From the sequence record MT764206.1: a stretch of DNA of 64,000 nucleotides. One strand, given 5' to 3'. The position numbers and the translations under genes are program-made. The notes under the pieces are model-generated. The model had not been told where the DNA came from and ran no database searches. It saw only the letters and a list, made by a program, of their open reading frames with translations. Below are positions 320-46,115 of the stretch, in pieces. Source of the DNA: Escherichia phage JEP6. Numbering within the stretch: position 1 is the stretch's first letter; each line of letters opens with the position of its first letter.

Positions 320-976
320 ATGGCAGCACCTAGAATATCATTTTCGCCCTCTGATATTCTGTTGGGTGTTCTAGATCGCTTGTTCAAAGATAACGCTACC
401 GGGAAGGTTCTTGCTTCCCGAGTAGCTGTCGTAATTCTTTTATTTATGATGGCGATTGTTTGGTATAGGGGAGATAGTTTCTTTGAGTACTATAAGCAAT
501 CAAAGTATGAAACATACAGTGAAATTATTGAAAAGGAAAGAAATGCACGCTTTGAATCTGTCGCCCTGGAACAACTCCAAATAGTTCATATATCATCTGA
601 GGCAGACTTTAGTGCGGTGTATTCTTTCCGCCCTAAAAACTTAAACTATTTTGTTGATATTATAGCATACGAAGGAAAATTACCTTCAACAATAAATGAA
701 AAATCACTTGGAGGATATCCTGTTGATAAAACTATGGATGAATATACAGTTCATTTAAATGGACGTCATTATTATTCCAATTCAAAATTTGCTTTTTTAC
801 CAACTAAAAAGCCTACTCCCGAAATAAACTACATGTACAGTTGTCCATATTTCAATTTGGATAATATCTATGCTGGAACAATAACCATGTACTGGTATAG
901 AAATGATCATATAAGTAATGACCGCCTTGAATCAATATGTGCTCAGGCGGCCAGAATATTAGGAAGGGCTAAATAA
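320..976 (+). CDS. t: holin T (lysis timing)
   Basis: 218 aa, SD GGAGGG at 311-316; protein MAAPRISFSPSDIL...ARILGRAK matches T4 holin T in length and sequence. Confidence 0.9.
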   Translation: MAAPRISFSPSDILLGVLDRLFKDNATGKVLASRVAVVILLFMMAIVWYRGDSFFEYYKQSKYETYSEIIEKERNARFESVALEQLQIVHISSEADFSAVYSFRPKNLNYFVDIIAYEGKLPSTINEKSLGGYPVDKTMDEYTVHLNGRHYYSNSKFAFLPTKKPTPEINYMYSCPYFNLDNIYAGTITMYWYRNDHISNDRLESICAQAARILGRAK

Positions 977-7420: not shown

Positions 7421-7978
7421 TTAAATGGAAAGATACCATCCGTTGTAGTTGCTTTTTCTTACAACCTTACGAAGGTCTTCTCTGTCACCGATGAACTTCG
7501 GAGTGTACTGGATGACACCTGGATGAATTTCTTTAGTGTTGAATATAATTATACAGTCAGCGACTTGATGATTTAGAATGGGCCCTAGATTTATTCCAGA
7601 ACCATATGGATACTCTCCGCTGCATCCGGTTGTTACCGAAATCCAACGTGAGTCAGTTTGATGTGTCTTAACTTCTACACGAAGCCCGCAGTATTTTGGA
7701 TGTGCTAAAACATCCCATGCATATGTGTACGGATCATCGACATCTTCTTGGCCTTTATTGACATATCCGCTTAGCCAATCTGCCACAAAAAACTCTGCGT
7801 ACACAGCGATACGGCATCTTTCGATAACTTCTGCTTTATCCTGGTTCGGGTTTTGTTTTAAAGAGTATCTTGCTGTATCAGCAATTTTGACCTTCATTTC
7901 ACTAGTCAAGTCACTGTTCGATAGGGTAAATGTCGGAATCTGAAATAGTCTCTGTAAACCTGGATTCGTTTTCTGCAT
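7421..7978 (-). CDS. denB: endonuclease IV (dC-DNA specific) DenB
   Basis: 185 aa, ATG with SD AAAGGAAAG; size and position as T4 denB. Confidence 0.75.
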   Translation of the reverse strand: MQKTNPGLQRLFQIPTFTLSNSDLTSEMKVKIADTARYSLKQNPNQDKAEVIERCRIAVYAEFFVADWLSGYVNKGQEDVDDPYTYAWDVLAHPKYCGLRVEVKTHQTDSRWISVTTGCSGEYPYGSGINLGPILNHQVADCIIIFNTKEIHPGVIQYTPKFIGDREDLRKVVRKSNYNGWYLSI

Positions 7979-25285: not shown

Positions 25286-25804
25286 TTAATAACCTCGGTC
25301 TTGACGAGCGAAGTTTTCAGCATTTTTCAGATAATAAAGTTTAAAGATTTCTTCAGCCGTAAGACCGAGACCTTGGAACATGTTCAGAACGAAATGAAGA
25401 ATATCAATCATTTCGAATTTAATTTCCAACTGGTCTTGTGGAGACAAATCAGTAATTAAAGTTTCACGACGTTCACCATGTTGAGCTTTCCAAGGCTTCC
25501 ATACAGCAGATGCATCTTTTTCGCCATTGCTCATACCACCAAGAGAAGTCAGAAGTTCACGGAATTCATCATCAATATAATCTTTCTGATTACGCAGCCA
25601 ATCAACAACTTCACCTGCAGTAGCCAAATCATCAGGATGACGGTTATATTCAGGTTTATCTTTAGCTAAACGAACCTGCAGAGATTTCTGCATGTCAAGC
25701 ATAACTTGCAACGGGTCTTTTTCATCACCGAGAATATCCCAGTATTCATTTTGAGCTTTATCAGCGCCTTCAATCAGTTGTGAACATTCATTAAAGTATG
25801 CCAT
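25286..25804 (-). CDS. 56: dCTPase/dCDPase/dUTPase
   Basis: Start at MAYFNEC (SD AAAGGAAAAA), about 172 aa, MazG-like. Confidence 0.8.
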   Translation of the reverse strand: MAYFNECSQLIEGADKAQNEYWDILGDEKDPLQVMLDMQKSLQVRLAKDKPEYNRHPDDLATAGEVVDWLRNQKDYIDDEFRELLTSLGGMSNGEKDASAVWKPWKAQHGERRETLITDLSPQDQLEIKFEMIDILHFVLNMFQGLGLTAEEIFKLYYLKNAENFARQDRGY

Positions 25805-25864
25805 TATTTTTCCTTTCAATTCATTAATAAGTTAAATAATTATATCATTTGAGTATGTAAGCAA

Positions 25865-26653
<789 letters not shown>

Positions 26654-26754
26654 TCATTTATTGCAGCAAAAATGAATTATACAGTTCTTCATCATATGTA
26701 TTTGATAGTAATACTAACACGTTTTGCGATAAATATTAATTTAAAGGAGGACAT

Positions 26755-29629: not shown

Positions 29630-31057
29630 CTAAAATTTTAATTCATTTGCCAAAGCATCTAACTGAGCTCGAGTCGATTCGTTTCTTTGATAGCGATTCT
29701 GTTCAGCCTGAATCTGCTGTGAACCTGCTACCTCACTCACTCCAGTTGGAGTAGAATCTTGTTCAATTTCTACCCATTTCTGATTTCCTTTTTGAACACC
29801 CATCAAAAACTTATTCCATTTGTTTTTATCGCCATATCGTGATTTGATTTGCTTAATGAGTTGTTGTTCAGCAGCTGCTAGCTCCTCGGTTTCAATGACC
29901 GCAAGCATAAAATCAGCTGTTGCTGGAAGACCGGCAGATTCTGCAATATCGCTCATGTTAACATCAGAAGAATCCCAAGCTTGTTTACCAACCTGTGCTG
30001 CAGTCCAAAGAACAGTTTCGGTTTCAACAGCAAGAGCACGTAATTCCTCTGCAATGGCTTTAACAGTTGTGTAACTATTTTCTGAGTAAACTCTAATGCG
30101 GCAAGATTTACAAATACCCAGATAGTCGACAATAATGATTGTTGGAACAAAATTCTTCTTGAGCTTCAATTCGTTTAAAAGTGATCGAAATGTATTAGCG
30201 TCTGCTCCACCAGTAGGATACTGTTTAACGATTAAACGCCCAAGAGTAGATTTCTCACGCCATTTTTCCATTTTTCCTTTATATTCAGCGTAAGAAATAT
30301 GCCCATCATCAATGTCATCAAGAGAAACATCAAGCATATTAGCATCAATACGCTTAGCACAGACTTCTTCTGCCATTTCCATGGAAATGTAAAGAACATT
30401 ATGTCCGAGCTGCAAATAATCTGCTGCCAATGAACACAGACCTAATGACTTACCAACGTTAACGCCAGCCATTAAAACGTTCAGTGTTCCAGTCTCAGCT
30501 CCGCCTTTAGTAATTTTGTTTAGAATTCTGAGTTTAAATGGAACCTTACGAGCTTTATTCATATAAGATAGCCAACGTGCTTCGTAGTCATCCATCCAAT
30601 CATGACCAACGTAGCTATCAAATGAAATTGATAATGCTTGGCGCATGATGTCAGGAATAGCACCTACATCTGGCATTTTCTTATTGCGTTTTTCCGGAGG
30701 AAGCTCAGCATTAGTTTGAATTTCGATTATTTTAGACGTAGCATTAAACATCGCCCTTTGCTGAACATATTTTTCTGTTTCTTTTACTAACCAGCTGTGG
30801 TCTTCCGGAGAATCAGCCAGTTTTGAAATAAGTGTTTTTACACCAGAATATTCTGTTTCAGTAAATGAACTATTTTCTAATGCAACATTTAACGCATTAA
30901 TAGATGGAACACTATGATACTCATTGACATGAGATTTAATTAATTTGAATGTATTTTTAGCTGGACCACTTTCAAAATATTCTGAATCCATATATGGCCA
31001 AACTTTTGAAAAATAAGCTTGATCAAATATGAGATGGGAAAGAATAATTTCTACCAC
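29630..31057 (-). CDS. 41: replicative DNA helicase (DnaB-like)
   Basis: 475 aa; Walker A GVNVGKS; initiates at GTG with SD AAGGAG. Confidence 0.9.
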   Translation of the reverse strand: MVEIILSHLIFDQAYFSKVWPYMDSEYFESGPAKNTFKLIKSHVNEYHSVPSINALNVALENSSFTETEYSGVKTLISKLADSPEDHSWLVKETEKYVQQRAMFNATSKIIEIQTNAELPPEKRNKKMPDVGAIPDIMRQALSISFDSYVGHDWMDDYEARWLSYMNKARKVPFKLRILNKITKGGAETGTLNVLMAGVNVGKSLGLCSLAADYLQLGHNVLYISMEMAEEVCAKRIDANMLDVSLDDIDDGHISYAEYKGKMEKWREKSTLGRLIVKQYPTGGADANTFRSLLNELKLKKNFVPTIIIVDYLGICKSCRIRVYSENSYTTVKAIAEELRALAVETETVLWTAAQVGKQAWDSSDVNMSDIAESAGLPATADFMLAVIETEELAAAEQQLIKQIKSRYGDKNKWNKFLMGVQKGNQKWVEIEQDSTPTGVSEVAGSQQIQAEQNRYQRNESTRAQLDALANELKF

Positions 31058-31066
31058 ACTTACTCC

Positions 31067-31411
31067 TTAAAAGAATTTAAACTTTTTCTTTGACCTTTTA
31101 TTGAATGCATCTTGTAGTTGCATTGTAATACATTTTTCTACATGAGGAGCTAACTCAGCTTTTCTTTCTTGGTCAAGAACAGCAAAGTCCATTACAACCT
31201 TTCCATCAACCCAATCTAATTTTGTCACATACACAATGTGTGTAGAACCATCTTCTAGTTTAATGACAATCTCCTGGATAACATTTTCCATGGCAGATTT
31301 AATTATCTTAAGAGACTCATTAAAAAGACGTTCTTTTCTTTCTTCTTCCCCCTCCGAAGAGGGGGATTCATCGATAATTTCTAGATCTAAGTCTAAATCA
31401 TCTTTATTCAT
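31067..31411 (-). CDS. 40: gp40 head-assembly/vertex protein
   Basis: Start at ATG MNKDDLDL, 5 nt after uvsX stop; track start is GTG. Confidence 0.6.
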   Translation of the reverse strand: MNKDDLDLDLEIIDESPSSEGEEERKERLFNESLKIIKSAMENVIQEIVIKLEDGSTHIVYVTKLDWVDGKVVMDFAVLDQERKAELAPHVEKCITMQLQDAFNKRSKKKFKFF

Positions 31412-32585
31412 TAAATTCTTCCATATCACTTAACTGCTCGAGGTCAGTTTCTAAATCAGCAGCTGATTTACTTTTACTTTCTGGAGATTTAAATTTTTCA
31501 ACCTTTGAGTTAATCAATTCATCAACTTCAGCTTCAACAATTTCATTACTATCAATAGCACCTAATTGATAAGCACGTTTAATAGCATCTCGGAATGGTT
31601 GATGCTTAAATAAAGGACCCCAGAATGTAGTGCAGTTGGTATCTTTTGCACGCCAAGATTTTTCTTCGCGAATCATCTCGCCGGTTTCTTCATCAAGAAA
31701 TTCACGAGCATACCAGCCATTTTTTGGTTTTACTACAAATCCTAATTCTAGAGCCATATCTAACAATCCAGAATAAGGATCGATACCACCGTCAAATTTA
31801 ACATCAATAAAGAATTTACTTTTTTCTTTAACGGTACGAGATTTTTCTACATTTAGAACAAATTGATACCCCTGAAGATCAGAACCATCTTTAATCTGAC
31901 GTTTACCGATAATGAATACAGTATCAGCCGAATACATTACGCCTGTACCACCTGTCATCACGGTTTTACTAAACATTTCAATCGTTTCAATTGTGTGGTT
32001 AACCGCAACACATGGAATATTTTTAATGCTAAAATAAGGAGTAACAATACGGAATAATGACTTCAGTGATTTAGCACGAGTCATATCTGCCACAGATTTT
32101 TCATTCAAGGCATCTTCCGTTTCTTTCTTAGAAGCCATATTACCAATTGAGTCGATGAATACAATAACCTTTTCACCACGCTCAATAGCTTCAAGCTGAT
32201 TCACCATATCAATTTTCAGTTGTTCAACTGACTGGATTGGCGTATGAATTACTCGTTCTGGGTCAACTCCCATGGATCGCAAATAAGCTGGAGTAATACC
32301 AAATTCGCTATCATAGAATAGACAAACCGCGTCAGGATATTTGTTCAAATATGCCGCAACCATAGTCAAAGACATATTTGATTTAAAGTGTTTAGAAGGC
32401 CCTGCAAAAATAGTTAAACCAGACTGCATACCGCCATCAATCGCACCAGAAATAGCGATATTAAGCATTGGAATTTTTGTACGAATTACATCCTTTTCAT
32501 TAAAGAATTTAGATGTAGTCAGCTCAGCAGTCATTTTAGAAGTGGAAGCTTTAATTAAACGGGATTTTAAATCTGCAATAGACAT
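31404..32585 (-). CDS. uvsX: UvsX recombinase (RecA-like)
   Basis: 393 aa; Walker A GPSKHFKS; matches T4 UvsX. Confidence 0.9.
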   Translation of the reverse strand: MSIADLKSRLIKASTSKMTAELTTSKFFNEKDVIRTKIPMLNIAISGAIDGGMQSGLTIFAGPSKHFKSNMSLTMVAAYLNKYPDAVCLFYDSEFGITPAYLRSMGVDPERVIHTPIQSVEQLKIDMVNQLEAIERGEKVIVFIDSIGNMASKKETEDALNEKSVADMTRAKSLKSLFRIVTPYFSIKNIPCVAVNHTIETIEMFSKTVMTGGTGVMYSADTVFIIGKRQIKDGSDLQGYQFVLNVEKSRTVKEKSKFFIDVKFDGGIDPYSGLLDMALELGFVVKPKNGWYAREFLDEETGEMIREEKSWRAKDTNCTTFWGPLFKHQPFRDAIKRAYQLGAIDSNEIVEAEVDELINSKVEKFKSPESKSKSAADLETDLEQLSDMEEFNE

Positions 32586-32662
32586 TCATTTTTTCCATAG
32601 GCATCATTATATTTTCCTCACTGGTTAAAGATAGAGTAATTATAACACAATAAATTTAGGCA

Positions 32663-33505
32663 TTAATCAACTGCTATTGGATGAATAGCATTAAACTTAT
32701 GAAATGCTTCTGATTTTTCTTTACGCGAAACACACATGCGAAGAACCTTTAGTGGTTCATCTTCTTCACCCAACGATTTTCGTTTTTCAATATTTGAAGT
32801 TTTCCAACGAGCTTGCTCTGGAAACTCTCTATTGATTTGCTCAAGCGCTCTATTATGTTTAGAATTACTACGAATTGAACTACACCCACCGGGAGCGTGT
32901 GATTTTCCAGATACAACTAGATATTTGAACAAGGCCAAATGCGGATAACCTTGATTAATTAAATTGAGAAATGCATACATATCTTCGCATAAATCAATTT
33001 TTCCATACCCAATTTGTTCTGTCGTAAGTTTTCCGAGGTCATACCATGTATTCGTGAATCCATATGAGTTTTCACGATAATTACCCCAAGATGAAGTAAT
33101 TTTAAAAATTGGTAGACGAGCATGACCGTGATAATACCCGCAATCCATGGCATCTTCAACGTATTGAATTAATTCATAGAACTGTTCACGAGTTAATTGA
33201 TTAATTTTATCTACACGCCGTTTATCGTCTCTCTTTCGTATTGAACTCATACGAATAGTAGTATCATCATCAATCATCCAGATTCGTTGACCTGCATACA
33301 TATCAGTAATTGCTTTACGAGTACCGGCAATTCCATTAACATCATCAGGAATAGTTACAATTTTAGCTCTAGACCCGTAAGCATCATAATAAGCTTTTTC
33401 TTCGTGTTCACGCACTACAATATGGGGTTCATAATCAGTCGGAAACATATTAAGGGCAGAAACTGCCCCTACACGCTGATAACTTGGAATTACGAATTGA
33501 ATCAT
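32663..33505 (-). CDS. putative DNA-modifying glycosyltransferase with DxD motif, not T4 beta-gt
   Basis: About 280 aa; WMIDDDT motif; occupies beta-gt locus between uvsX and 42; ATGA-coupled to gene 42 stop. Confidence 0.55.
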   Translation of the reverse strand: MIQFVIPSYQRVGAVSALNMFPTDYEPHIVVREHEEKAYYDAYGSRAKIVTIPDDVNGIAGTRKAITDMYAGQRIWMIDDDTTIRMSSIRKRDDKRRVDKINQLTREQFYELIQYVEDAMDCGYYHGHARLPIFKITSSWGNYRENSYGFTNTWYDLGKLTTEQIGYGKIDLCEDMYAFLNLINQGYPHLALFKYLVVSGKSHAPGGCSSIRSNSKHNRALEQINREFPEQARWKTSNIEKRKSLGEEDEPLKVLRMCVSRKEKSEAFHKFNAIHPIAVD

Positions 33506-34242
33506 TTCCACTCACCGTTATAATCTTTTTTCACAATATGAGTTTCGCCAGTATTCCACCAATGATCAACCAAGTAAAAATGACGAGAATATACATGAAG
33601 ACTTCCAACATTCCATATAATAGAACCTGCTTTATACTGACGAGTTGAATCGCCTGCATTCAAATCAGATACTAATTTATCTAATACGTATTTTTGCCAT
33701 GCATAATCATTACGGAATCCGAAGACCACGTCATTTGAGCGCATGTTAACAACCGCATTGACTTTCTTATCACGAATCAGGTACTGTACTGTATTAGTAC
33801 ACATGAAATCTGACATACCATCTTTATTGTAGTCAAATTGCATGGATGGACGAGTATAAATCATGATACCACGTCGAGAATCAGGATTTTGACCAAGTTC
33901 AGCTAAACACATATCATACTGGGCATAGTTATCTTCTGACCAGATAGCCCAACCATAATTCGAGTTAATTTCACCTTTAGAAGATGCTACCTGCTGCCAA
34001 ATCTTCGGTGTTTCACCTGGAATATCTTTAACAAACAGACTTTGAGACTTATACCATTCAAGTTCACGCTGAATGTATTCATCATTAAGAGCGCCAAAAA
34101 TAAACGGTTCATCTGCTACAAATGATGCGCCAATAATTTCAATAGTTTTAACGCCAGTTTTATCAACTACGAAATCTTTTTCCTTTAATGCAAGCCCCAA
34201 ATGAAGACGGATTTCTTCAACTGTCATAGAGTCACTAATCAT
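33502..34242 (-). CDS. 42: dCMP hydroxymethylase
   Basis: 246 aa, thymidylate-synthase-like; T4 gp42 length. Confidence 0.9.
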   Translation of the reverse strand: MISDSMTVEEIRLHLGLALKEKDFVVDKTGVKTIEIIGASFVADEPFIFGALNDEYIQRELEWYKSQSLFVKDIPGETPKIWQQVASSKGEINSNYGWAIWSEDNYAQYDMCLAELGQNPDSRRGIMIYTRPSMQFDYNKDGMSDFMCTNTVQYLIRDKKVNAVVNMRSNDVVFGFRNDYAWQKYVLDKLVSDLNAGDSTRQYKAGSIIWNVGSLHVYSRHFYLVDHWWNTGETHIVKKDYNGEWK

Positions 34243-34395
34243 TTAAACCTCAATTGATACATTCATATTTAACTTGTAACAGTAATAAACCCCAACCTAA
34301 AATAATAGTTGGAATCATAAGAGGAACCGTTACACTATAGTATATACTTATTATAACCATCAAGATTAAAAGCAATGCTGTTATAATTTTGCTTT

Positions 34396-34647
34396 TCATT
34401 CCTTCTCTCTGATGATAATTACCTGATTTGGCTGCGCAGACTTTTTAGTTTCACCCGCAATTGACCAAATAAATGTAATAAACCAACCAATAATTGACCA
34501 GTTAAACAGTAAAGATGTGAAAAAGATTCCTACTGTCGATTTTGACCCACGCATCAAGGCGATAAACCATGGAAGCATGTATATAATAATAGCCAACACG
34601 CCTGAAACTAAAACCATAAAAATTGAACCTGCTACTAAAGTTTCCAT
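34396..34647 (-). CDS. imm: superinfection immunity membrane protein Imm
   Basis: 83 aa, two TM segments. Confidence 0.8.
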   Translation of the reverse strand: METLVAGSIFMVLVSGVLAIIIYMLPWFIALMRGSKSTVGIFFTSLLFNWSIIGWFITFIWSIAGETKKSAQPNQVIIIREKE

Positions 34648-35045: not shown

Positions 35046-35315
35046 TCAAATACAAGTAGTAATTACTCCAGTAGTGCTTACACAGATATTACCTAATTGA
35101 ACACCCAGCGTTCCATTAGTATTCATATGAAGATTATCATCAATTTTTGTTGATACTTTACCATTCATGTGAATAACAGTATTAGATTCAATCACATTCT
35201 GAGTGTCATTTTCAATATCAATAAATGGAACAGCTGCTAATGCAACTAGAACAACTGCTAATGCAACTAAACACGCTGCTAAACAACCATAAACAATTTT
35301 CATTTTATTCTCCAA
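35046..35315 (-). CDS. small membrane protein
   Basis: 89 aa, N-terminal TM. Confidence 0.5.
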   Translation of the reverse strand: MENKMKIVYGCLAACLVALAVVLVALAAVPFIDIENDTQNVIESNTVIHMNGKVSTKIDDNLHMNTNGTLGVQLGNICVSTTGVITTCI

Positions 35316-35486: not shown

Positions 35487-38183
35487 TCAGCCAAACAGGA
35501 AGTCTAACGAAGCTTTTTCTTCATAGTCCATGCCAGCCGATTCACACATACCTGCAAGCGGTTTAACAAACGATTTTTGGAACAAAGTTGAGTGGTCAAT
35601 CCAAGATAGCACATCAGAACGAATTTCTTTTGGAAGTTCTGTACCCGATGGCCAAGCAATGCACTTGTCACCAAATGGATTTCCTTCACGTAATGGAAGA
35701 ACCATTACTTTATTTCCATCCAAAATTGGAGCTACACCCAGACCACTAACAGCTCGACGATAAGTTAGCACACCGCGAATATGGAACGGGCATTTAAATC
35801 CTGGCCAACCTTTATCATCATATTTCGCTATATCGTTCGCAGTTTTTACTTCAGCAATAACTTTATAGTCAAGTTGACGATATTCTTTCTCGAAGTTCTT
35901 GTAGTATTCTTGGACAGACTCTTCACCTTCCTGAAGAATACGACGAATACTTTCTTCGAGAGCTTCTTGCACTGCTTTTGGTGTTGAACTCTGCTGAGTT
36001 TCCATACCCATGATTTTTAGATGCGGTTCAGCAAATCGTTTATCTTCCATATCATAAACGTTCAGAGCATAACGCTTTTTCGCTTTCCAAAATCCACCAA
36101 CACCCTTTGAACCAAGTGGAGGGCAAGAAATAGCTTCACGGTCCATATGCATCAGATGCTCGCGGTTATTCATATAATCACATAACTCACGATATGCAAC
36201 ATCAATCATAGGTTCCATCTTTTTCTTACCGAACTGATTCATGAATTCAACTAAATCGTTCTGCTCTTTGAATCGGTCAAGACCAACTTTTTCAATAACT
36301 TTATCTACACAAACATATACCGAATCAGTATCACCTGCTGCGATGAAATCTTCACCATTAGTTCCGCATACTTTATTCAGATATTCATTAATTTTACGAG
36401 CAATCCACTGAATACCAACTTGGCCGAAAATTGTGATAGCAGTAGCATTTCGCAAATCATAGTAACGGAAATGAATATTACCAAGAGCACCATAAAGACT
36501 GTTAATAAGAATTTTACGGTTCAGCTGATTTGTATTAGCAAGTGTAGCCGCTTTTTCACATTCTTCAATCAAACTATTGAGAACAGATTCGGTGTAATTC
36601 GACAGTTCATTTAAGAAATCATCACTGAACTTAACATATCGTTCAACTTCTGGTTTAGTTGAACAAGACCCTGCGCCTTTCATAATAATCTTTTTAATAG
36701 CTTCGGCATTCATTTCTTCAGCGAACATTTTCTTTTTCCAGTCTTTACGCTGGAAAAATACTTTAGCGATTTCCTTTGGAATGATACCTTCTTGATGCTT
36801 ATCATACATCCATCCATTCGGAGAACAAGAATATTCTTCACTTGGCTTAGGAGCTGTTCCTGCGATATATTCATGGATTGGATGAACTTTAAACTGCCCA
36901 CGAATAGTCTCAGGACTAATGTTAACCTGACGAATAATGCTAGGATACAGAGACGTCAAGTCAAAACTCATAATATATCGACGAGCAATTGGTTTAGGTT
37001 CAAACACAAATGCACCCGGAAAACTTTGTTTAACGTGCGAACCTTGTTGAGGAATAACCTTATGTTCACCTTTCAATGAGTTAAAAATAATAGCATCCCA
37101 AGTTTTAATAGGACTCATTACACCAGAAAAAGGCATTTTAGCATAATAAGACATACTTAAAACTAGATCGATAAACCCGCGAATTTTATCAATTGCTTGA
37201 ACTGATTCTACGTCAATGATGTTATAACTAATGTATCGTTGATGATTAGTCTCACGAAGTTTATTAATAGGACCATCGTACGGTAATTTACCTTTTTTGG
37301 TTTCATGTTGAGCAACTGATTCCAAAGAGAATGACGGCAAATTAGTAAATGCGAATTTCTTATACAAATCTAAATAATCAAGAATAGATACGCCATCAAT
37401 AGAATAAATTTCTTTGCTACCGTACACATTTTGAATTAGTTTAGATTTTACCCGACCAATTGGAGAGAAACGTTTCATACTGCGTTCACCGAGAACCATT
37501 TTAACGCGATTCATGATATACGGAACGTCAAATCCCTCAATATTCCAACCAGTAAAAATAGCAGGTCGTTTCTGTTCCCAGAGATTGATATATTCCATGA
37601 GCATATCACGCTCATTATCGAATGGCATATAAATTACTCGGTCAAGAATTTCTTGAGGAACTTCATCACCACCTTCACAGTCAAGCTTAGCAGCTAACTT
37701 TGCATCCCATTTTGATACTGAACCGTACATTGAATTCAAAAGGTCGAAAACATAAAAACGATCGTCAATTGAATCATAATGAGTGATAGCATCAATTTCA
37801 TATTCTGCTTTCATTGGGTCAGGAAATTTATCGCCAGTAACCTCAATGTCACAGTTAGCTACACGAACAAATTTTCGGTCATAAACAATTTCTGAACCAT
37901 ATGTATCACTGATATAAGCGAGTTTAAAATCGTTCATACCGAGAGCTTCGAGACCGATGTCTTCCATTCGCTTCATCCAATCTCGAGCATCTTTCATTGA
38001 TGGAAATTTTTGAGGAGCGCAATTTTTACCATAGATGTCTTTATATTTTGACTCTTCCTTACAATGCCTAAACATAGTTGGAAGATATTCTACTTCACGA
38101 GTACGTTCCTTTCCGTTTTCATCAATATAACGTTCAACAATGTTATTTCCGACTGTTTCAATAGAGATATAAAATTCTTTCAT
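35487..38183 (-). CDS. 43: DNA polymerase (family B)
   Basis: 898 aa; exo motifs and pol motif YGDTDS; T4 gp43 length. Confidence 0.95.
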   Translation of the reverse strand: MKEFYISIETVGNNIVERYIDENGKERTREVEYLPTMFRHCKEESKYKDIYGKNCAPQKFPSMKDARDWMKRMEDIGLEALGMNDFKLAYISDTYGSEIVYDRKFVRVANCDIEVTGDKFPDPMKAEYEIDAITHYDSIDDRFYVFDLLNSMYGSVSKWDAKLAAKLDCEGGDEVPQEILDRVIYMPFDNERDMLMEYINLWEQKRPAIFTGWNIEGFDVPYIMNRVKMVLGERSMKRFSPIGRVKSKLIQNVYGSKEIYSIDGVSILDYLDLYKKFAFTNLPSFSLESVAQHETKKGKLPYDGPINKLRETNHQRYISYNIIDVESVQAIDKIRGFIDLVLSMSYYAKMPFSGVMSPIKTWDAIIFNSLKGEHKVIPQQGSHVKQSFPGAFVFEPKPIARRYIMSFDLTSLYPSIIRQVNISPETIRGQFKVHPIHEYIAGTAPKPSEEYSCSPNGWMYDKHQEGIIPKEIAKVFFQRKDWKKKMFAEEMNAEAIKKIIMKGAGSCSTKPEVERYVKFSDDFLNELSNYTESVLNSLIEECEKAATLANTNQLNRKILINSLYGALGNIHFRYYDLRNATAITIFGQVGIQWIARKINEYLNKVCGTNGEDFIAAGDTDSVYVCVDKVIEKVGLDRFKEQNDLVEFMNQFGKKKMEPMIDVAYRELCDYMNNREHLMHMDREAISCPPLGSKGVGGFWKAKKRYALNVYDMEDKRFAEPHLKIMGMETQQSSTPKAVQEALEESIRRILQEGEESVQEYYKNFEKEYRQLDYKVIAEVKTANDIAKYDDKGWPGFKCPFHIRGVLTYRRAVSGLGVAPILDGNKVMVLPLREGNPFGDKCIAWPSGTELPKEIRSDVLSWIDHSTLFQKSFVKPLAGMCESAGMDYEEKASLDFLFG

Positions 38184-44912: not shown

Positions 44913-46115
44913 TTATTTTGTAATAATGTCAAACTGTTCTTTAAAGCAGAAGCTTGAATCTTGGTGCTGATACAAAAATTCATATGCTTTTTCTCGCTCA
45001 CGGTCATAAAGAGCTCGGTCAGATGACAGTTCTTTAATACGCTCGAATGTTGATTCCATGTCATTTTCATCAAACCAAATGATACCACTATCATGCGAGG
45101 TCAAAGGAGTATTATCAACACGGAATTTTAAATTATCACCCGTTGATTTCCAAAATACCGGAATTGTACCGCAAGCACCTAATTCAAGATGAGTATATTC
45201 GAGTGAGCGTTGTAAGTATTTCTGGTTAAGTTTACTCAACTGATATCCAAAGCCAGATTTACTCATTCGTTCAAGCATTTCACTATTAATATAACAATCT
45301 AGGATTTGTGCCGGTTGATTCGGCGTGAGATTCATTTTATCAATCTCACGATTACCATAATATTCATACGGAATACCTTTTTCCTTAATTGCAATAAAAG
45401 CAGGGGAACGTTCAAGACCTTCCATTACAGTGGATTTACCAGCAGGTTTTAAGAATTTTTCGTGAAAATCAAACATCTGATAAAAACCTTTCCATGTAGT
45501 CGTACGACCAATCCAACGGTTGATGTTCATGTTAATTTCAGAAACATCTTTCCAATAAGTTGACCGAACCTTCACAATATCCATAGGAGGCTGAAAATTA
45601 TATACTGTTGGTGCTTCTTCAATATCATCAAACAGAGAAACAGTTTCTGGATACCATTCTTTCATCAGAACTTTATTAAAATCGCCATTATCAGAATGAC
45701 TAAAAATAACATCAGCTCGACGAACAGTTTCTTCTAATCCCAAATTTCGACGCAAAGAAAGCACAGAATGATCATGCTGATAAACTACAACACGAATAGA
45801 AGGTTTAATATTATCTAAAAGTTTTTTATAGTTATTAATCGTAGCTTCTTGAACGGAAGTAGCAGGAACAGAATTAATAATTAGAATATCACAATCATTT
45901 ACCAGCTTAAGTGCTTTATCGTATTCTTTAGCTAAAATAACTGGAATTGAAAATGATTTGTGGTCATGAGAACTTGTACGAGTAAATGATTTATCTTTAG
46001 CATAAACCAAAGTTACTTCATGACCATTTTTAATAAACCAATCACGCTGCTCAAGAGAAAATTTAGTTACACCGCAACCTTCAAGACCCCGAGCCAGAAA
46101 AATGCATACTTTCAT
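44913..46115 (-). CDS. a-gt: alpha-glucosyltransferase (HMC-DNA)
   Basis: 400 aa, close match to T4 alpha-gt. Confidence 0.9.
   Translation of the reverse strand: MKVCIFLARGLEGCGVTKFSLEQRDWFIKNGHEVTLVYAKDKSFTRTSSHDHKSFSIPVILAKEYDKALKLVNDCDILIINSVPATSVQEATINNYKKLLDNIKPSIRVVVYQHDHSVLSLRRNLGLEETVRRADVIFSHSDNGDFNKVLMKEWYPETVSLFDDIEEAPTVYNFQPPMDIVKVRSTYWKDVSEINMNINRWIGRTTTWKGFYQMFDFHEKFLKPAGKSTVMEGLERSPAFIAIKEKGIPYEYYGNREIDKMNLTPNQPAQILDCYINSEMLERMSKSGFGYQLSKLNQKYLQRSLEYTHLELGACGTIPVFWKSTGDNLKFRVDNTPLTSHDSGIIWFDENDMESTFERIKELSSDRALYDREREKAYEFLYQHQDSSFCFKEQFDIITK

Follow-up and report, generated by a model that had tools for sequence, protein, structure and literature searches.

The enzyme activity that places a second glucose on the glucosylated hmC of T-even phage DNA dates from the 1960s, and the T2 and T6 genes were reportedly cloned and sequenced by Winkler and Rueger in Nucleic Acids Res 1993. 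In T2 and T6, an alpha-glucosyltransferase (alpha-GT) glucosylates hmC and a beta-alpha glucosyltransferase, the product of ba-gt, adds a beta-1,6-linked glucose to yield gentiobiosyl-hmC, which accounts for approximately 5% of hmC in T2 and 72% in T6 (PMC6024577, PMC13160076). Deletion of ba-gt from T6 leaves DNA that behaves as alpha-glucosyl-only (PMC11078745; T6(delta g-gt) in PMC13160076), being sensitive to Brig1 and releasing glucose under BapA (PMC11078745, PMC13160076); this deletion phenotype was published in Nature 2024. The T6 protein, a TET-associated glycosyltransferase (TAGT), has a GT-A fold and is placed by structure as a sister group to GT2 (PMC13216743), and the fold has already been published (NAR 2026). 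HPLC/MS of DNA from the Durham Tequatrovirus phages EL, Geo and BGP gave 5-hmdC, alpha-glucosyl-hmdC and alpha-gentiobiosyl-hmdC in a ratio of approximately 1:2:2, and the authors credited the second glucose in the Durham phages to a TAGT syntenic with T4 beta-GT (PMC13390438). That TAGT takes the place of T4 beta-gt at a syntenic position is likewise in print (AEM 2026). In this study, we examined the corresponding locus in a stretch of 64,000 nucleotides of Escherichia phage JEP6 (MT764206.1), hereafter the window, and compared its product with those of the phages above, with T4 beta-glucosyltransferase (b-gt) and with cellular GT2 enzymes.

Genomic context and partner genes

On the minus strand, T4-type genes for replication and modification follow one another in the order 41, 40, uvsX, ba-gt, 42, a 49-aa ORF, imm, imm.1 and 43, with 46, 47 and alpha-gt further on (Table 1); uvsX and gene 42 are the neighbours of ba-gt both here and in T2 and T6. 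The reading frame is open from a GTG two codons upstream (32663..33511 (-), 282 aa) and from the ATG at 33505 (280 aa). This ATG shares an ATGA overlap with the TGA of gene 42, has GGTGAG 7-12 nt upstream and is the annotated start in the homologues of T2, PST and the Durham phages. G+C content and skew across the region are unremarkable. A scan of 32300..34500 returned 11 promoter-like sites against 10.9 in shuffled sequence and two terminator-like sites against 1.3; because these counts are no higher than in shuffled sequence, our regulatory statement is limited to the overlap with gene 42. T4 has segA alongside b-gt, whereas in JEP6 tblastn found no segA between uvsX and ba-gt or anywhere in the 64-kb window.

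Table 1. Features of the JEP6 ba-gt locus and of its partner genes (window positions)
Feature	Coordinates	Strand	Remarks
Gene 56, dCTPase/dUTPase, keeps unmodified C out of DNA	25286..25819	-	PF08761, 28.9 bits against a cutoff of 22.9
dam, D12-class N6-adenine methyltransferase	within 25865..26729	-	
Remnant of 'restriction-enzyme-like' gene	26667..26729	-	21 aa
Gene 41	29630..31057	-	
Gene 40	between gene 41 and uvsX	-	
uvsX	31404..32585	-	PF21134, 4.7e-39; downstream flank of ba-gt
Spacer uvsX/ba-gt	32586..32662		77 nt
ba-gt (ggt/TAGT), beta-glucosyl-HMC-alpha-glucosyltransferase	32663..33505	-	280 aa + stop; ORF scan
E174-D175 (CEDMY) codons	32981..32986	-	candidate catalytic base of an inverting GT-A enzyme
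WMIDDDT, residues 76-82	33260..33280		
D79-D80-D81 codons (GATGATGAT)	33263..33271	-	metal/UDP-sugar motif of DxD type, closes predicted strand 74-77; putative catalytic role
Hairpin, ba-gt codons 12-18	33451..33471	-	9 bp, G+C-rich
First strand and loop, MIQFVIPSY(Q)R	33478..33505	-	GT2-like nucleotide-binding start; predicted strand 3-7, pLDDT >80
Gene 42, dCMP hydroxymethylase (thymidylate-synthase family)	33502..34242	-	PF00303, 7.3e-16
49-aa ORF	34250..34399	-	very hydrophobic
89-aa ORF	35046..35315	-	hydrophobic N-terminus
Gene 43	35487..38183	-	
a-gt, DNA alpha-glucosyltransferase, makes the alpha-glucosyl-hmC acceptor	44913..46115	-	PF11440, E 3.4e-259

Several smaller features were observed in the same region. 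The spacer between uvsX and ba-gt contains TATAAT with AATGCCTAAA before it, a candidate MotA-type middle promoter for uvsX. A hairpin near the start of ba-gt (TAGGGGCAG TTT CTGCCCTTA), the same in T2 and T6 save for its last base, was raised by the terminator scan; such sites are no commoner than in shuffled sequence. No counterpart of the 49-aa ORF, which separates gene 42 from imm, is annotated in T4, but the ORF is kept in PST, Geo, BGP, CP, EH2, Solly, TB37, Some, QOTSP and NR1, labelled hypothetical or 'phage protein'; the 89-aa ORF lies between imm.1 and gene 43, where relatives have a 237-nt hypothetical gene. Neither ORF has a Pfam match.

The genes that supply the acceptor, gene 42 for hmC and alpha-gt for alpha-glucosyl-hmC, are both in the window, and the gene 42 product is identical to T4 gp42 at 239 of 247 positions. 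Gene 56 stands beside dam and the primase gene, where T6, Geo and BGP have a gene annotated as dCTP pyrophosphatase. JEP6 shares the dam gene with T4, T2 and the EL group. Geo, EL and BGP carry a 186-aa 'restriction-enzyme-like' gene beside dam, whereas JEP6 keeps a short remnant of it; an intact copy in the window was rejected.

By the route established for T-even phages, gp42 would make hm-dCMP and gp56 would remove dCTP, so that the DNA would be replicated with 5-hmC, and alpha-GT, a GT-B enzyme, would add an alpha-linked glucose to most hmC. The 280-aa GT-A enzyme would bind UDP-glucose via the DDD motif and a divalent metal and place a second glucose on the first in beta-1,6 linkage, with inversion, giving gentiobiosyl-hmC. 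The di-glucosyl base would alter which host defences act, blocking the alpha-glucosyl-hmC glycosylase Brig1, as it does in vitro, and the glucose-removing BapA.

Relationship to the T2/T6 enzymes

The JEP6 protein matches PF20691 (TET-associated glycosyltransferase, TAGT) over profile positions 2-205 of 205 (E 5.5e-10; 40 bits against a gathering cutoff of 27.5) and phrog_842, 'beta-glucosyl-HMC-alpha-glucosyltransferase' (E 2e-88). It shares 96% amino-acid identity over its full length with the ba-gt proteins of T2 (AP018813) and T6 (MH550421, gene 'ggt'), and 279 of its 280 residues with those of EL, Geo and BGP (OZ034682, OZ034685, OZ035849) and of Yersinia phage PST. A nucleotide search matched the gene to 478 deposited phage records, of which 474 reach 90% identity or more; the majority belong to Escherichia, Shigella, Yersinia and Salmonella Tequatrovirus, and in many the gene bears the annotation beta-glucosyl-HMC-alpha-glucosyltransferase. 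With tblastn the gene was found in 688 records, including copies of approximately 65% identity in Klebsiella and Enterobacter phages and one of 48% in Serratia phage PS2. Ordinary Tequatrovirus genomes (ELT1, HP3, SG1, vB_Eco_EL) match the 24.5 kb around the gene at 96-98% identity; the match to EL is approximately 97%, close without being identical. The first-pass annotation had implied that the occupant of this locus was unusual, a view that we do not share: ba-gt is the usual occupant of the slot between uvsX and gene 42 in T4-like coliphages.

On every testable criterion JEP6 ba-gt belongs to the known TAGT family. It shares with the T2/T6 genes its length, its genomic slot, the partner genes alpha-gt, 42 and 56 and the invariant DDD, and nothing in the JEP6 sequence speaks against the assignment. 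The ORF is very probably a T2/T6-type ba-gt that acts with gp42, gp56 and alpha-GT in the pathway from hmC through alpha-glucosyl-hmC to gentiobiosyl-hmC. The predicted transfer of glucose in beta-1,6 linkage onto alpha-glucosyl-hmC, which had been offered as an example in the first-pass annotation, is the documented function of the T2/T6 orthologues (PMC11078745, PMC13160076, PMC6024577); for JEP6 it is supported through relatives, by the HPLC/MS of EL, Geo and BGP and by the T6 deletions. Among orthologues of 96-99.6% identity the function has been shown both genetically and chemically, and the catalytic details are deduced from the fold. The name 'TET-associated' reflects distant relatives; JEP6, like T2 and T6, relies on gp42 to make hmC at the level of the nucleotide.

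Predicted fold and active-site residues

A word-indexed protein search yielded no more than 11 clusters, most of them close relatives, and the ten-sequence alignment built from it gave a model of moderate confidence, poor in residues 125-151 and 194-210. The model is a single Rossmann-like domain whose best structural matches are GT-A enzymes; on this prediction, ba-gt adopts a GT-A fold and conserves an acidic motif of the DxD type. In the family alignment the three aspartates of this motif are invariant down to 31% identity, as are I6, P7, S8, Y9 and R11 of the first strand and loop; D175 is invariant and E174 nearly so. By analogy with GT2 enzymes, E174-D175 is a candidate ED-type base, with D175 as the plausible catalytic residue. 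We infer a metal-dependent, inverting GT-A transfer from UDP-glucose, together with the roles of the individual residues.

The resemblance to cellular GT2 enzymes of the GT-A type (9jma AvpGT beta-1,3-glucosyltransferase, BcsA, TarP/TarS, SpsA) is marginal at the level of sequence. A single-sequence search of the PDB gave chance matches only (E > 1), and the one GT2 match came from the family profile search, in which IPSY.R and DDD align with IPTYNR and LDDDD of 9jma at E 0.24. Unlike these enzymes, ba-gt has a DNA-borne glucose as acceptor, and its basic C-terminal 70 residues lack any counterpart in them.

Sequence variants in T2 and T6

In each of the two T6 genomes on deposit, ba-gt shows an apparent lesion, and the two lesions differ. 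In MH550421, codon 10 is changed from CAG to TAG (amber; 7951..7953 (-) of the locus) and the CDS is annotated from Met20; in NC_054907/AP018814, one GAT is gone from (GAT)3 (approximately 552..557 of the locus), which reduces DDD to DD. An exact-match scan of IMG/VR contigs found no other copy of the amber variant, which looks private to one T6 record. These lesions are odd given that T6 shows the highest gentiobiosylation. T2 ba-gt (AP018813; 7283..8125 (-) of the locus) has the private substitutions R11H and P251S, at positions that are invariant and nearly invariant, respectively, in the family alignment; one or both are candidates that might explain the low gentiobiosyl-hmC content of T2 relative to T6. 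The T6 lesions and the private T2 changes may be stock mutations or sequencing errors.

Alternative readings of the locus

Genomic position is all that connects the ORF with a highly diverged T4-type beta-glucosyltransferase, a GT-B enzyme that would place a single beta-glucose on hmC itself. Both enzymes would carry out a UDP-glucose-dependent, inverting, beta-linking modification of phage DNA, but T4 b-gt (PF09198; 351 aa) differs in fold, is unrelated in sequence and takes hmC, not the alpha-glucose on hmC, as acceptor. The best BLASTP match between the two proteins has E = 4.1, and PF09198 gave no match at E <= 1. Together with the single Rossmann-like domain of the model and its GT-A matches, these results refute a diverged b-gt, to which we attach practically no probability. 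A separate b-gt was found by tblastn nowhere in the 64-kb window; one elsewhere in the genome is improbable, as no hint of it was seen in any of the 478 relatives. The first-pass annotation had described a protein of about 280 aa between uvsX and gene 42 that bore no resemblance to T4 b-gt (given there as 351 aa), carried a GT-A-type WMIDDDT motif and co-occurred with a T4-type alpha-gt and a dCMP hydroxymethylase, and the coordinates, alignments, predicted fold and partner genes reported here bear this description out.

A TAGT-family enzyme might also act on another acceptor or donor, for example on bare hmC directly or with another sugar. Specificity does vary in the family, since TAGT homologues accompany beta-GT or stand alone in 288 of 753 genomes (PMC13216743), and Mosigvirus relatives make arabinosyl disaccharides. 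Those variants, however, are distant homologues, whereas JEP6 ba-gt is 96-99.6% identical to enzymes of phages with measured alpha-gentiobiosyl-hmC, which makes a change of specificity very unlikely. Slightly less remote, though still improbable, is a weak (T2-like) or inactive allele that would leave the virion DNA essentially mono-alpha-glucosylated. T2 possesses ba-gt and has only approximately 5% gentiobiosyl-hmC (PMC13160076, PMC6024577), the apparent lesions in the two T6 genomes indicate that loss or weakening does occur in stocks, and JEP6 has one private substitution, D19N. Position 19, however, is not conserved across the family; JEP6 has neither R11H nor P251S and neither T6 lesion, every family-invariant residue is intact, and 279 of 280 residues are shared with EL, Geo and BGP, of whose DNA approximately 40% is gentiobiosylated. 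An active T2/T6-type ba-gt remains the preferred reading.

Allele sets and the extent of gentiobiosylation

Possession of ba-gt does not determine how far conversion goes, as T2 has the gene and converts only approximately 5% of its hmC. Our comparison of ba-gt proteins took in JEP6, T2, T6, PST and all ten Durham Tequatrovirus phages for which nucleoside data have been published. The proteins form two haplotypes at seven linked positions (50, 89, 95, 97, 101, 202 and 203). JEP6, PST, EL, Geo and BGP have V, I, K, R, I, S and H, and conversion is partial (approximately 1:2:2) as measured in EL, Geo and BGP; CP, EH2, Solly, TB37, Some, QOTSP, NR1, T6 and T2 have I, M, R, C, V, A and Q, and conversion is near-complete in the seven Durham phages, 72% in T6 and 5% in T2. 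The V50 I89 K95 R97 I101 S202 H203 haplotype was thus present in all three partial-conversion Durham phages and in none of the seven near-complete ones. The alpha-gt allele co-varies with the ba-gt haplotype, with 33 differing positions in the four Durham phages compared, and that of JEP6 is the allele of Geo and BGP, the two members checked.

JEP6 therefore carries the 'partial' set of both genes. As both alleles match the EL/Geo/BGP type, the best prediction is that JEP6 would show partial conversion, with hmC, alpha-glucosyl-hmC and gentiobiosyl-hmC at approximately 1:2:2 and not near-complete as in T6, a ratio that comes from one close clade, with 98.4-98.9% genome identity among EL, Geo and BGP, and in which the contribution of ba-gt is confounded with that of the co-varying alpha-gt allele. 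We put forward only tentatively, and with more doubt than belief, the wider proposal that T-even phages carry two linked sets of glucosyltransferase alleles that set the conversion of alpha-glucosyl-hmC to gentiobiosyl-hmC.

Discussion

The identity and function assigned to ba-gt in JEP6 are correct and already known, and do not constitute new biology: the gene is annotated in hundreds of genomes, and papers from 2024-2026 describe its deletion phenotype, its GT-A fold and its synteny with T4 b-gt. The pattern of sugars on hmC decides which host defences can attack, among them McrBC, GmrSD/BrxU, the glycosylase Brig1 and the glucose-removing BapA, and the combination of alpha-gt and ba-gt without beta-gt in JEP6 is useful for annotation and for host-range prediction. 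The only forward-looking point is the correlation of allele with the extent of gentiobiosylation. If the V-I-K-R-I-S-H haplotype, and not the alpha-gt allele or the level of expression, were causal, it would represent a natural 'dimmer' of DNA hypermodification.
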